NCBI RefSeq assembly: GCF_036365525.1
Contig: NC_090377.1
Span: 127,253,594-127,317,593, forward strand
Direction of reading: 5' to 3'
DNA from: Heterodontus francisci
Taxonomy: Eukaryota
Length of the DNA: 64,000 nt
In this document: positions 56,012 to 64,000 of the stretch, piece after piece
How the letters are laid out: the number at the start of each line of letters is the position of its first letter
Position numbering within the stretch: position 1 is the first letter of the stretch
Translations under genes and position numbers: made by a program
Notes under the pieces: generated by a model
The model's input: only the letters and a program-made list of their open reading frames with translations
Databases searched by the model: none
Told to the model about the DNA's origin: nothing

Positions 56012-57680
56012 TGATGAAATGTATCCCAGGCTGTTAAAAGAAGCAAGAGAGGAAATAGCAGAAGGTCTGACATTATTTTCCAGTCCTCGCTGGACAAAGG
56101 TGTGGTGCTAATGTTGTACCTCTGTTTAAAAAGGGAGCGAGTGATAGACCGAATAATTACAGGCCAGTCAGTCTAACCTCAGTGGTGGGCAAATTATTGG
56201 AATCTATTCTGAGAGACAGGATAAACTGTCATTCAGAAAGGCACAAGTTAATCAAGGATAGTCAGCATGGATTTGTTAAGGGAAGATCTTGTTTGACCAA
56301 CTTGATCAAATTTTTTGAAGAGGTAACAAGGAAGATAGATGAGGGTAGTGCAGTTGATGTGGTCTACATGGATTTTAGTAAGGCTTTTGACAAGGCCCCA
56401 CATGGCAGACTGGTTAAAAAAAATAAAATCCCATGAGATCCAGGGAAATACAGCAAGGTGGATACAAATAAAAGCAAAATACTGCGGATGTTGGAAATCT
56501 GAAATAAAAACAAGAAATGCTGGAAATACTCAGCAGGTCTGGCAGCATCTGTGGAGACAGAAGCAGAGTTAACGTTTCAGGTTCAGTTCTGAAGGTGGAT
56601 ACAAAATTGGCTCACTGGCAGGAAACAAAGGGTAATTGTTGACAGCTGTTTTTTCGATTGGAGGGCTGTTCCCAGTGGCGTTCCGCATGGCTCAGTACTA
56701 TGTCCCCTGCTTTTTGTGGTATATATTTAACGATTTGGATGTAAATGTAGGGGGCATGACCAAGAAGTTTGCAGATGACACAAAGATTGACCGTGTGGTA
56801 GATAGCAAGGAGGACAGCTGTAGACTGCAGGAAGATATTGATGGTCTGGTCAGATGGGCAGAAAAGTGGCAAATGGAATTCAACCTGGAGAAGTGTGAGA
56901 TGATGCAATTGGGGAGGCCAAACAAGGCAAAGGAATACACGATTAGTGGGAAAATATTGAGAAGTGTAGAGGAAGTGAGGGACGTTGGAGTGAATGTTCA
57001 CAGATCCCTGAAGGTAGCAGGACAGGTCAGTAAGTTGGTTAAGAAGGCATATGGAATCCTTTCCTTTATTAGCCGAGCTACAGAATATAAGAGCAGGGAG
57101 GTTATGCTGGAACTGTATAACTCATTGGTTAGGCCACAACTTGAGTACTGTGTGCAGTTCTGGTCACCTATTACAGTAAAGATGTAATTGCACTAGAGAG
57201 GGTACGGAGGAGATTTACGAGGACGTTGCCAGAACTGGAAAACTGCAGCTATGAGGGAAGATTGGATAGGCTGGGGTTGTTCTCCATGGAACAGAGAAGG
57301 TTGAGGGGAGATCTGATTGAAATGTACAACATTTTGAGGGGCCTGAATAGGGTGGAGGTGAAGGGCTTATTCACTTGAACCAAGAGGTCGGTGACTAGGG
57401 GGCATAGATTTAAAGTGATTGGTAGAAAAATTAGAGGGGCAATGAAGAAAAATGTTTTCACCCAGAGGATGGTGGGGGTCTGGAATTCACTGCCTGAGAG
57501 GGTAGTTGAAGCAGAAACCTTCAACTCATTCAAAAGGAGTCTGGATGTGCACCTGAAGTATCGTAATCTGCAGGGCTAGGGACCAAATGCTGGAAGGTGG
57601 TAGAATAGGTTGATCGTTTCTCAGCTGGCACAGGTACGATGGGCCAAGTGGCCTCTTTCTGTAGCTTAAACTTTCTATGA
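56012..57680 (+). mobile_element. 5'-truncated CR1
   Basis: QHGFVKGRSCLTNLI, DFSKAFDK, KFADDTK, RPQLEYCVQFWSP and the 3' UTR. Closely related to 29864-31280. Confidence 0.92.
56469..56591 (-). mobile_element. 123-nt Penelope-terminus-derived insertion with TSD
   Basis: Perfect 14-bp TSD AAGGTGGATACAAA (56455-56468 / 56592-56605). Confidence 0.88.
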
Positions 57681-58730: not shown

Positions 58731-58755
58731 GAGTGAAAGAACACAATCAACTGGT

Positions 58756-59794
58756 TGTTACGATCAAATGAGGAGGGATCGAAAGGTTTCCCTCTTTTCC
58801 TACTTCTTGTTTGACCACAACAGGTTTAATCTTTTCCTAAAGTGGATGTGTTGCCAATTCAGTAGGTGTTTGATTAATTACTTGCTGTAATCATAACAAG
58901 AAACAATCGGATAGGTTTTCTTGAGTTAACAAAGAAAGAGGTTAACTTTATTGTACCTAAACCGAANNNNNNNNNNNNNNNNNNNNNNNNNNNNNNNNNN
59001 NNNNNNNNNNNNNNNNNNNNNNNNNNNNNNNNNNNNNNNNNNNNNNNNNNNNNNNNNNNNNNNNNNNNNNNNNNNNNNNNNNNNNNNNNNNNNNNNNNNN
59101 NNNNNNNNNNNTAAGTTACAGAGTAGGGAAAGTTAGATTGGTTGAGTTAGAGTCTATATAAAAAGGTATACAGTCTGTGGAGTTTGGTGATTTGGCTGGT
59201 TTCTAGCTGAATTCAGTGGTCCTGAGGTTTTTAGTTTGAAGAGGTAGATGACTGGTTCGGTTCATCTCTTGGAGACAGCAATGTGGATGATTTCCTCCAA
59301 TGGGGTTTCTGATTGTAGCTGGAGTATGCAAAGGTGGTCAGCCAACAGGCAAGATTTGAAAGCTTTCAAGCGGTAATGGAGAGAGAGAGAGACCCCACTG
59401 GGTGTGCACGTGGCAGAGTCCAGTGCTTCTCCTCTCTCTGCTGCAGAAAGACACAAGCTTAAAACCACAGATGGGGAGGGACTTGTCACATGACATTCAG
59501 TCAGTCATTCAAACATAGCAGTTACCAGTATTTCCTCTTGCTAAAAAGAACAGGTAGTTCCTTTAAACTTTCTGAGTCTTGGTTCTTGCTGCGACATGAG
59601 CAGACATTTCATCTCCCCCCTCACAAGTATTGTAGTGTAGGATACAGTGTTGCAAATTAGGTATCCATCTTAAGCTGCCAGCAAAGTCATCTTTTCAGCT
59701 GGTCCTTTTAAAAAAAGTCTTTAAAAAAAAAATTCAGATCTCCAGTCAGTGGATTAAAGAAAATTATCATTCAACAAAGCACATTGGCGTAATA
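58756..59794 (-). repeat. 3' LTR of the Gypsy element (contains an assembly gap)
   Basis: Starts TATTACG right after the PPT and ends CGTAACA. U5 resembles 9380-9458. Confidence 0.82.
58967..59111. other. Assembly gap (145 N)
   Basis: Run of N. Confidence 1.
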
Positions 59795-60025
59795 CCTCCC
59801 CACCATGCGAAATGCAATGTGACAACGGAAACAATTCATTATGAGGTCACAAGTTAAAAAGAAACTGTACACAAACACTCTGTGCGTGCGAGAGAGTAAG
59901 ACTGTACACAGTCTCATTGTCATAGCCATATTCTCGTTTTTTTTTCATCCGGGGTTGTGAACGAGCACAACTGGGGAACTTCAACTGCTCTGACCGGGCT
60001 CAATCAGCCTGTGCTCCAGCATAAA

Positions 60026-60626
60026 CTGAATTTCCTCATGTCTTTCTACAATATCTTCCTTTGCCAGTTTCTCTATATCAGTGAACTCAACCCTGGATTC
60101 AAAGTTGTTCATAATTTTGTAAAGATTGTCCAGTGCTTTTTGTACATTTTTCTGTGTGCTCATCCAGTCCAACAGCTAGCTTTGCAGAGCACTGTGGAAA
60201 CCAATTGTCACCAAGTAAAATGGTGACTTCATTTGTATGGATTAGCTGTCCTGGCATAAATGCAAGTGGGCCAAATGTCACCATAACATCCTAAGACACT
60301 TTGTCAGGCAAAGATTTAAGCCTGCCTTTAAGTGCTTCATAGTCATTTTGTACTTTAACCCCGGTGCTGAATTTTTTCCCTTGTAGCTTGAGACCACCTA
60401 TCAATTTTGTCCTGCATCTCTTCCTGTTGTTCCAGCTCATTTAGCCTGGCCCACAATTCCTCCTCAGATCGGTTACTTGACTTGCAGTCACCACCACCAT
60501 CACCACCCTCCAAATCTACCACAAAAACCTTTTTGAGAGTAGGGTTTTCCTTTGGCTTATGAGCTTTTCTGTGTCTCCCTTCAGAATTTAAATCTTTAAT
60601 TTCTAGGTCTTCAGTCTGAATTTCCT
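60026..60626 (-). pseudogene. URI1: Circularly permuted, intronless URI1 fragment captured in Gypsy pol (candidate circRNA-derived retrocopy)
   Basis: 60626-60398 reads EIQTED..RHRKAHKP..EEELWARLNELEQQEE..IDR. 60397-60026 reads VVSS..IQH..NDYEALKGRLKSLPDKVS*DVMVTFGPLAFMPGQLIHTNEVTILLGDNWF..CSAK.AVGL.EH..MNNFESRVEFTD..DIVERHEEIQ. Both match recalled human URI1 residues ~40-229, but in swapped order. One stop and three frameshifts. Confidence 0.9.
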
Positions 60627-60653
60627 TCCAAACATGGGTCAGTTTCCTGGGCC

Positions 60654-62200
60654 CTAGGCATATTGTTTTATGGGAGGGGTCTCTTCTACATCCATATCAT
60701 GTAGGGTTAGAGTTGTGCACCCTGGTTTGTCCCTACAGATCCCTTTAAACGTTGTGAGCAGCCTTGCTAGGTCTCCTTTATGTTCTGCGTTTAAATAGGA
60801 GAGTACAGTGTCTAATGTCCCTAACATTTCAGTGTTAGCTAACCAGATGGTAGGGGGTTCGATGTGGGAATCCTCATGGCCTCCCTCTAACTTGTCCTCA
60901 TTGTCCGTTTCGCCCTCCTCTTTCCTGACTGCCTGACAGACTTGTGCTTCCCAGATGTGATACAATTTTAACATATTGATGTGGCACAGCCTTTTCCTTT
61001 TCCTCCGATCTGTGGTGTCTATTATGTAATTTACCTGGCTAATTCTCTTTACTGCTCTGTACAGGCCACTGAACCGGGCTTTCAATGGTTCTCCCTGTAT
61101 TGGTAATAGCACTAACACGTGGTCTCCAGGCTGAAATGTTCTGGCCTTGGCATATTTATCCGCCTGTCCTTTCATAGCTGTCTGGGAGGTTTTTAGGTAT
61201 TCCTGAGCCACCACACAGGCTCTCATGAGTCATTCTCGGAACATGGAGATGTAGTCTAACAGGGATGATTTATCCCTGTGTCCCAAACCACCTTTCCTTG
61301 ATTGGTTTTTGAGGACCTCTCACCTCGTGACCATAAACTAATTCAAAGGGGCTAAAGCCAGTGGACTCATTGGGGAGTCCCATGTAGCAAACAGAAGAAA
61401 TCCCAGCCCTTTGTCCCAGTCATGGGGGTACTCATAACAGTATGTACTGACCATTGTCTTTAGGGTCTGGTGGTACCGCTCCAAAGCCCCTTGTGACTGT
61501 GGGTGGTAGGCTGAGCACTTTAGCTGGGTTATGCCCAGATTACCCATGATCTTTTGAAAAATACTGCACATAAAATTTGTGCCCTGATCCAACTGGATCT
61601 CAGCAAGCAGCCCATATCGGGTGAAGAATTGGGTTAGCCCCACTAACACTACCTTGGCAGAGCTAGTTCTTAGAATGATAGCCTCTGGAAATCGGGTAGC
61701 TACATCTATAATGGTGAGAAGAGACTGGCAGCTCCCTTTTGTTTTCGGCAGGGGCCACACACAATCTACCAGCACTATGCTGAACGGTTCCCCAAAAGCC
61801 GGTATGGGAATTAGGGGTGCAGGTTTTAGTGCAGGTTGAGGCTTCCCCACAATCTCACACATGTGGCAAGTCTTACAGAACTCCACCACATCCCTGTGGA
61901 GTTGTGGCCAATGAAAATGCTGTCTGATGTGGGCTTGGGTTTTTCTGATACCGACATGATACCAGCCATTGGAATCTCATGGGCTATTCTCAAAATTTCC
62001 CTACAGTACCTCGGCGGCACCACTATCTGGTGAACCACTGTCCACTCTTCGTCTGCAGGTCTATAAGGAGGTCTCCACTTCCTCATCAACAACTCATCCT
62101 TTAAATAGTAGCACTTTGGAATTCCCTCTGCTTCAGCATCAATTTGGGCAGTCTGTGCTAACTTTTTTAACTCTAGGTCGGCTTGCTGCGCCGCGACCAA
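60654..62200 (-). pseudogene. Gypsy integrase plus linker and RT N-terminus
   Basis: LRIAHEIPMAG, FCKTCHMC, VLVDCV, IQLDQGTNF, SAYHPQSQGALERYHQTLK, FQPGDHVLV..ARFSG, HINMLK, then PPIKQ. Confidence 0.9.
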
Positions 62201-62330
62201 AGAAAACCTGTTTAACCCATCCTTTGGGTTAACTTCCCAAAGAAGGTTTCAGATAAACAGACAGCAGGGTCATCTGTCTACAATACCAGTTCAGGCTCCT
62301 CTGGTGGAGCTTGTTTGACCATGGACCAGG

Positions 62331-62775
62331 TCACCACACAGTCAGGAAAAATGTCAGGGACCTTTTCCTGTAACTGCTCTGTCTCCCTGGCCTCTTCCGT
62401 CTCTCTAAAACCACTGGGAAAGCTACCAACTTTGCCCCCGCCAGATCATTACCCAGGAGCAGGTCGACCCCATCCACAGGTAAACTAGGGACAACTCCCA
62501 TGGTTGCCAGTCCTGAAACAAGGTCGCACTCCAGGTGCACCCAGTATAAAGGTATGGGCATATACTTTCCTCCAACACCGTTTACTAGCACTCTGGCATT
62601 CAATGCACTCTCTGGGGGGGAAGGTCATGCCTTTTCCCAGCAGAAGGGATTGTGTGGCTCCTGTATCCCTAAGAATGACTATGGGCTTCCTTGCCTCACT
62701 CGAGGGGTATGGGGTCATTTTTCCTCTGGACACAAAATCCTGGTAACTCTCAGGGATTTTGTTAAGTTTTCCCAC
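62331..62775 (-). pseudogene. Gypsy aspartic protease
   Basis: ILRDTGATQSLL and LPVDGVDLLLGNDLAG. Confidence 0.88.
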
Positions 62776-62795
62776 ACTCTCAGCGGTAGATTTAC

Positions 62796-63771
62796 CTCCC
62801 TTCCCCTGTCAGCATTCCGAAGGGATCGTTCCCTCCGTGACACCCTGGTTCAGTCCTCCACTACCCCCACCACTTCATCCCCTTCCCACGGCACCTTCCC
62901 CTGCAATCGCAGGAGGTATAATACCTGCCCATTTACCTCCTCTCTCCTCACTATCCCAGGCCCCAAACACTCCTTTCAGGTGAAGCAGCGATTTAGCGAT
63001 TTACTTGTACTTCTTTCAATGTAGTATACTGTATTCGCTGCTCACAATGTGGTCTCCTCTACACTGGGGAGACCAAACGCAGACTGAGTGACCACTTTGC
63101 GGAACACCTCTGCTCAGTCCGCAAGCAGGACCCCGAGCTTCCGGTTGCTTGCCATTTCAACACTACCCCCCCTGCTCTCATGCTCACATCTCTGTCTTGG
63201 GATTGCTGCAGTGTTCCAGTGAACATCAACGCAAGCTCGAGGAACAGCATCTCATTTACCGATTAGGCACACTACAGCCTGCCAGACTAAACACTGAGTT
63301 CAATAATTTCAGAGCATGACAGGCCCCCCATTTTACTTTTATTTTTCGTTATTTTTTTCCTTTTCCATTTTTAACATTTTTTTTGGTCTTTTTTTTTGTG
63401 TTTATTTTATTTTATTTCATCTTAGTTTGTTCAGTTTGCTTACCCACTTTCTTTTCATGTTTGTACTTGCGGCTGTTCAATTTTCAGTCCATTAACACCC
63501 TTTCTGTTCTAATGCTTTGTCTTTCAATACACCATTAACATATCTTTGCTCCATGGCCTTCTGGTCAGCTATCCTGTGACCTTGTCCTATCGACACCTTC
63601 TCCTTTGTTATCTCTTGCCCCACCCCCCCTTTACTTGCTTATAACCTTTTACATTTCTAATATTTGCCAGTTCTGAAGAAGGGTCACTGACCTGAAATGT
63701 TAACTCTGCTTCTCTCTCCACAGATGCCGCCAGACCTGCTGAGTGTTTCCAGCATTTCTTGTTTGTATTAT
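62796..63771 (+). mobile_element. 5'-truncated Penelope-like element (GIY-YIG endonuclease) nested in Gypsy
   Basis: GTFPCNRRRYNTC, VVYCIRCSQCGLLYTGETKRRL..FAEH and VACHFN. 11-bp TSD GGTAGATTTAC / GGTAGGTTTAC. Confidence 0.9.
63669..63705 (+). ncRNA. Minimal type I hammerhead ribozyme-like motif in the Penelope 3' end
   Basis: AGTT-CTGAAGA-AGGGTC/GACCT-GAAA-TGTT-AACT: core boxes, stem II and stem I pairing are visible. Confidence 0.6.
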
Positions 63772-64000
63772 GGTAGGTTTACATGGTTTTCCTGCCGCTG
63801 TTAAAGCCACAGCCTGGTCCGCTGTACTTTTCATCAGGGCCCCTTTTCCAGCACTCATCTAGTGTACCCTGACTAAACCTATGGGTTTTCCCCATAACTT
63901 CCAGCAGTCAGCTCAAAGGTGACCTGCCTTTTTACAACGGAAACATACAGTCTTTTGGGAGTCACTCCTGTTCTCAGCACCTTCCTTCTTGGCTTGAGGA

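Follow-up and report, generated by a model that had tools for sequence, protein, structure and literature searches.

URI1 exons out of order in an LTR retrotransposon family of the shark Heterodontus francisci, probably captured from a circular RNA

Circle-derived pseudogenes are known in mouse, where 33 high-confidence circRFWD2 pseudogene copies of differing lengths are found near MMERVK10C-int (PMC4897178), and the mechanism by which circular RNAs are retrotransposed has been called mysterious (Dong et al., 2016; PMC4897178). For linear mRNA, the main text of Tan et al. (2016; PMC5131818), in which the words "circular" and "Rfwd2" have 0 occurrences, describes LTR-mediated retroposition with microhomology-led switching of the reverse transcriptase (RT) between templates. 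Gypsy elements of the Gmr1 type are described as having their integrase upstream of RT (PMC8220671; PMC11117352), and the human URI1 locus is reported to give a circle, circURI1, by back-splicing of exons 3-4 (PMC9037454). Among titles and abstracts of the open-access literature (most subscription papers being outside this scope), we found neither a shark circRNA-derived pseudogene nor a closer case.

The locus described here lies in a window of 64,000 nt of the Heterodontus francisci genome (the whole stretch of DNA that was analysed), in which an LTR retrotransposon carries a 590-nt insert of URI1 exons 2-7, hereafter the ring. It has the sequence features of a circRNA-derived pseudogene, i.e., a junction joining splice sites out of order and the exons of the circle only, with no introns or poly(A). 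Like the mouse circRFWD2 copies, it joins a last to a second exon (6-2 in mouse, 7-2 in the shark), is limited to circle exons without poly(A), exists in many copies and adjoins LTR sequence. Unlike them, it belongs to a Gypsy-type element and numbers hundreds of copies, which have both ends in common and hold one exact turn; the text of Dong et al. (PMC4897178), as far as it bears on this, mentions no empty site or shared word, and the mouse junctions derive from circles seen in RNA, whereas the shark ring is known from genomic copies. The new points are an empty site that is precise, a single exact turn, copy numbers in the hundreds, and the occurrence in a shark. The human URI1 locus also yields a circle, but from exons 3-4 as reported (PMC9037454), against exons 2-7 in the shark ring.

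The retrocopies described in the main text of Tan et al. (PMC5131818) resemble the ring in that host RNA sits in sense orientation inside an element with both LTRs, with short words at the switch points and non-autonomous onward spread. In these fly cases, as presented there, part of the element is always replaced and two different words are used (median 6 bp), whereas the shark ring uses one 12-nt word for both entry and exit and replaces no element sequence; this missing replacement is just what a ring or repeat template predicts. The carrier agrees with the published descriptions of Gmr1-type elements (PMC8220671; PMC11117352) in having its integrase before RT and two LTRs, an assignment made by domain order, and differs from these descriptions in that the ring subfamily holds exons of the host and does not move autonomously.

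On the minus strand, window positions 60615-60026 read as intronless URI1 exons in the order exon 6 (3' part), 7, 2, 3, 4, 5 and 6 (5' part). Alignment with the parent gene places the 3' part of exon 6, including 15 nt absent from today's parent, at 60579-60615, and the complete exon 7 (181 nt, ending at its own splice donor) at 60398-60578. A back-splice-type join at 60398|60397 leads into exon 2 (60362-60397), which begins at its own splice acceptor, both of these exons being placed by contig alignment as well, and exons 3 (60282-60360), 4 (60148-60281) and 5 (60065-60147) follow, and then the 5' part of exon 6 (60026-60064). The last 12 nt of the latter (60037-60026) are the right copy of a 12-nt word whose left copy (minus strand, 60616-60627, with an 11/12 match in the window) aligns to both the RT start and URI1 exon 6. 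Exon by exon, the insert is 85-96% identical to the parent. Shark and ray URI1 rank first among the 49 protein matches to the stop-free piece of the insert, and a Pfam Prefoldin match is seen at E 2.8e-4, which falls short of the family cut-off; a PDB search with the insert matched no URI1 structure. Compared with the parent locus, the insert is free of introns, of exons 1 and 8, and of poly(A). The original prediction had described just such an intronless 590-nt ring of exons 2-7 without poly(A), with URI1 as the expected best match, and both points hold. Its extent of 60026-60626 needs trimming, the insert proper being 60026-60615 and positions 60616-60626 belonging to the second copy of the 12-nt word, and what it took for a single fossil is one among hundreds of genomic copies. 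It also passed over the role of the 12-nt word as the place of entry and exit, and the relatives with an empty site.

The parent URI1 gene is located at G000:C17:43.70-43.76 Mb, the sole locus found with a query from the URI1 C-terminus, a region outside the insert. With protein P0015 and the window sequence as queries, URI1 exons 1-11 each map once in the 200 kb around the parent, barring an inverted extra exon 1. Parental exons 2-7 (35, 79, 136, 83, 61 and 181 nt; 575 nt in all) are each preceded by AG and followed by GT; the ring's extra 15 nt sit in exon 6. Exon 7 ends in ATTGATAG|gt and exon 2 starts at ag|GTCATC. At 60398|60397 the splice donor of exon 7 (phase 2) meets the acceptor of exon 2 (phase 0); the join falls on the parental exon borders as predicted, its position being certain only within 2 nt because AG and GT occur on both sides. 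For an out-of-order join in a 1.9-kb mRNA, the computed chance of striking two splice sites is about 7e-5. When exon 4 was compared with the genome together with its intron flanks, the flanks were matched, among the best 40 matches, by the parent only. Introns 1 and 7 of today's gene have a 1.2-kb direct repeat in common (84%), and the inverted repeat between them is weak (267 nt, 72%), stronger ones pairing introns 1-4 and 4-7.

The inverted copy of URI1 exon 1 (G000:C17:43779793-43783120, locus L032) is identical at 30/30 residues and lies ~20 kb upstream of the gene; the duplicate also takes in adjoining sequence (96% over 881 nt), and a 4-kb block of tandem repeats separates the two copies. 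A ring-bearing element (L125, G000:C17:43654001-43661000) is found ~40 kb downstream of the last URI1 coding exon in opposite orientation, and looks like an ordinary family copy. Another shark URI1 of 698 aa (P0024) has a long 10-residue tandem repeat after the exon 7 region, which is unrelated to the ring.

Transcript evidence was drawn from contigs of 8 of the 24 listed sequencing runs, none of them listed as RNA and each covered for a small share, with RNA status guessed. Linear URI1 contigs that are likely RNA diverge from the window exactly at the join, into exon 8 in 4/4 runs and into exon 1 in two of four further runs. Likely-RNA contigs also bridge the two ends of the insert (three of four runs), which therefore adjoin in mRNA. 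Among the listed pieces of the 8 runs (13 pieces in the four further runs), whose contigs leave out rare forms and whose RNA status is guessed, no parent-allele contig spans the exon 7-exon 2 join. In run X3, a low-depth contig of 165 nt crosses the join; it reaches only 19 nt beyond it on one side, has 17 differences and 9 gaps, falls short of the threshold and is more like an element copy.

The carrier is an LTR element of the integrase-before-RT (Gmr1) type. Read along the minus strand, it begins in the window with the end of a gag-like region common to other copies (63780-64000), followed by a protease-like region (62300-62800; a DTG motif read from the sequence, with no Pfam match), a decayed integrase upstream of RT with zinc finger, core and C-terminal domain (61000-62000; PF17921, PF00665 and PF22938), and a spacer with the first RT codons (60628-61000, from the sequence and relatives). 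Behind the ring, an RT stub (59950-60025) is identified from relatives and from the RVT_1 match to the same stretch in one related copy (L004), and stops at a common deletion of about 1.12 kb covering RT and RNase H. It is followed by the element's own 3' untranslated stretch, present in ring-free relatives too (59805-59949), the polypurine tract (59795-59804), the 3' LTR (58756-59794 by LTR comparison, including an N stretch at 58967-59111) and a 4-bp target-site duplication (58752-58755), matched at the 5' LTR by flank comparison. This 5' LTR lies 1.2-2.1 kb past the window end, with a K2P distance of 0.123 from the 3' LTR. The sequence cut by the ring is the start of RT, as seen from the RVT_1 match on L004, where RT continues, and the ring lies in the same sense as the element. 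The predicted placement within the RT start of an LTR retrotransposon is accordingly borne out by RVT_1, the upstream integrase and the two LTRs. Just after the 5' LTR (read in L104, and in all 6 elements compared) is a primer-binding-site-like stretch, which we take to resemble the tRNA-Pro type.

Two other parts of the window were considered on their own. The stretch 59945-59625 was tried as a second captured RNA and rejected, being the element's own 3' end as seen in ring-free relatives. The interval 62800-63780 consists of later insertions between gag and protease; it includes, on the plus strand, a GIY-YIG-like fragment (E 0.003, short of the cut-off), and 80 nt of it recur inverted at 56503-56582.

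A search of the genome with the ring region of the window gave 595 candidates. Forty of these were scored, and all align over 606 or more of the 621 nt; the 39 besides the window itself are 87-90% identical to it. Relatives of the carrier were picked by the upstream flank alone (30 loci among the 40 best, minus the window's own, leaving 29). Twelve of these are ring-free with RT continuing, 16 are ring-bearing (9 in shortened form) and one is ring-free with the RT deletion. This last copy (L049:1780-1915) has an untidy site and is probably a secondary loss of the ring. The word GAGGAAATTCAG occurs once in ring-free copies, once in URI1 exon 6, and at both ends of the insert in ring copies, and in 4/4 ring-free copies tested (3.3 kb of element) no exact match to exons 2-7 is longer than this word. 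Both insert ends are identical in 20/20 aligned copies, and at the insertion site element and ring are both complete, with no sequence lost from either partner. In two copies, L004 and L124, the ring is present and RT continues behind it; the capture therefore took nothing away.

Across the genome, pattern searches matched the ring start 388 times, the back-splice join 129 times and the shortened ring 156 times, against 0 for the reversed controls. The back-splice-join pattern detects 13 of 20 sampled copies, which puts the true number at about 200. RT sequence just past the usual deletion point gave 315 matches (reversed control 0). A few of these matches come from segmental duplication, 3 of them on C2 and 8 in a single C7 array; the C7 array (G000:C7:115.50-115.86 Mb) is a tandem segmental array of eight near-identical ring copies at ~50 kb spacing. 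Six elements were checked for target duplications, which vary from site to site and are exact in two, a 3-of-4 match in one and unreadable in three, and the LTR pairs of these six differ by K2P 0.11-0.15. With site-specific target duplications and diverged LTR pairs, the ring therefore spread by retrotransposition, long ago. A representative-protein search with the RT-URI1 frame, weak as a test of absence from other sharks, returned 19 matches, all on the URI1 part, and no chimeric protein.

In a FastTree phylogeny of 62 copies (11 of 73 loci were dropped for short cover, 7 duplicates were excluded beforehand, and L050, labelled full, is actually shortened), the topology is star-shaped with 3 nodes at or above 0.9; ring, shortened-ring and ring-free copies are intermixed, and ring copies form no clade. 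Because the tree offers no ring clade, it is the shared ends that speak for a single capture.

Two losses have shaped the family. About half of it lacks 275 nt of the ring including the back-splice join, with 315 nt left in whole codons; this loss is later than the capture and is bounded by a short word in exon 7 and a similar one in exon 4. In L066:1793-2112 and 8 other loci, the 315 nt that are left encode URI1 residues in the frame of the element polyprotein. The joint of the shortened ring is seen in low-depth contigs from six of the 8 runs, with RNA status guessed. The RT-RNase H deletion of about 1.12 kb begins about 75 nt downstream of the ring, separate from the capture site, and is found in every flank-picked ring copy with a readable downstream side bar L004; it is absent also from L124. 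All four combinations of full or short ring with kept or deleted RT exist, so that copies must have recombined, and L004 does not fix the order of events. In L124 (2312-4993), a shortened ring is split by a later 1.1-kb insertion, and the sequence behind it matches RT-RNase H over its full stretch; this copy is a recombinant or an intermediate.

Evolutionarily, the cargo is decaying, with no sign of selection in the copies read. Private changes in the URI1 frame amount to 0.062, 0.040 and 0.047 at codon positions 1, 2 and 3, i.e., with no third-position excess, and copies differ by 9.3% from the parent and by 10.6% from one another. The ring retains the 15 nt of exon 6, as do 10/10 other aligned shark and ray proteins, and today's parent has lost them. 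In the shark/ray comparison (3 of 14 rows, 7, 125 and 126, set aside as gap-placement artefacts), the parent is unlike at least 8 of the 10 others at 11 residues; copies have the parent state at 3 of these (19-20 of 20 copies), are split at one and lack it at 7 (where it is found in 0-1 of 19-20 copies). The ring thus retains 15 nt and 7 residues since changed in the living gene, and this pattern places the capture on the lineage leading to this shark, at a stage well before its present gene. The shortened-ring joint also occurs in contigs of two organisms in which URI1 is likewise without the 15 nt. The only published rate found, 7e-10 per generation as quoted from PMC10587355, yields implausibly old dates, and we give the age as relative only.

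How did the exons come to be closed into one unit and entered into the element at a single word? The original prediction, a captured circURI1, is supported by the splice-site join, the single parental copy and URI1 as the best match. We consider it probable that RT switched at the shared word onto a co-packaged URI1 circular RNA, made one turn and switched back, and that the product was then amplified. The template would be a covalently closed RNA: back-splicing in the germline or early embryo would make a circle of exons 2-7, which would enter the particle alongside the element RNA. RT copying the element would reach the 12-nt word, move to the circle, go round, meet the word again and return. 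Exactly one turn could be explained if RNase H cuts the template behind RT, leaving element RNA at the same word as the only exit. Ring copies would then have been moved by the enzymes of intact siblings, needed because an insert of 590 nt throws the reading frame off ahead of RT. Another candidate template is a linear RNA in which exons 2-7 are repeated, produced by trans-splicing or a short-lived tandem duplication. With RT entering at the word in the second exon 6 and leaving at that in the first, it predicts the identical sequence, exactly one unit included; closed and repeated templates leave the same scar because in either of them the shared word comes round again after one unit. The direct repeat shared by introns 1 and 7 today could seed such a duplication, and, if as old as the capture, the repeats of these introns would favour duplication over pairing-driven circularisation. 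We nonetheless regard this template as unlikely. Parental tandem duplication had been named at the outset as the finding that would speak against a circle, and a search of the 200 kb around the parent turned up a single copy of exons 2-7; a repeat of these exons was likewise sought in 15 shark, ray and chimaera URI1 proteins and none was seen. In addition, as 590 nt does not divide into whole codons, the repeat would be frameshifted, and such an allele or RNA would likely be short-lived.

Co-packaging would be dispensable if a DNA ring, or linear cDNA made from a circle, entered a genomic element by one crossover at the 12-nt word, which also yields word-ring-word with no loss. This appears quite improbable for an insert that lies in the element's sense and whose target is an LTR family that was bursting at the time, its copies being of equal age with and without the ring; moreover, a word of 12 nt has many other places in 6 Gb, yet the ring loci read are all in one element family, and the best 39 exon 4 matches other than the parent are exon-only copies. 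LTR enzymes can switch repeatedly, according to the main text of Tan et al. (PMC5131818), and exons 1 and 7 both end in AG, so three switches on an ordinary linear URI1 mRNA might be proposed, with the middle one falling on two exon borders by chance. The low two-splice-site chance computed above makes this very improbable, and the outer switches must also use one word. The short direct repeat bordering the insert could suggest an assembly chimera, or a LINE-type processed pseudogene with the 12-nt repeat as its target-site duplication. The former has to contend with the 129 junction matches, spread over many contigs against none in the reversed control, and the latter class fails, there being no poly(A) and the word pre-existing in both URI1 and the element; an origin of this kind is extremely improbable.

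The capture of a URI1 circle, if this reading is correct, extends circle-derived pseudogenes to cartilaginous fish and provides indirect evidence of an ancient germline back-splice. With a before state (the empty site), an after state and the shared word between them, a precise and testable mechanism can be defined for the step left open by Dong et al. As a caution, circRNA studies of Heterodontus francisci can be misled into false calls by a back-splice junction that the genome itself holds in hundreds of copies. More tentatively, it is conceivable, though somewhat doubtful at this stage, that LTR retrotransposons routinely package host circRNAs, that capture begins and ends at one shared word and is limited to one turn by RNase H blocking a second round, and that shark genomes keep the amplified fossils. 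If true, old, slow-decaying shark genomes would record ancient germline circular RNAs together with the ancestral sequence of their genes.
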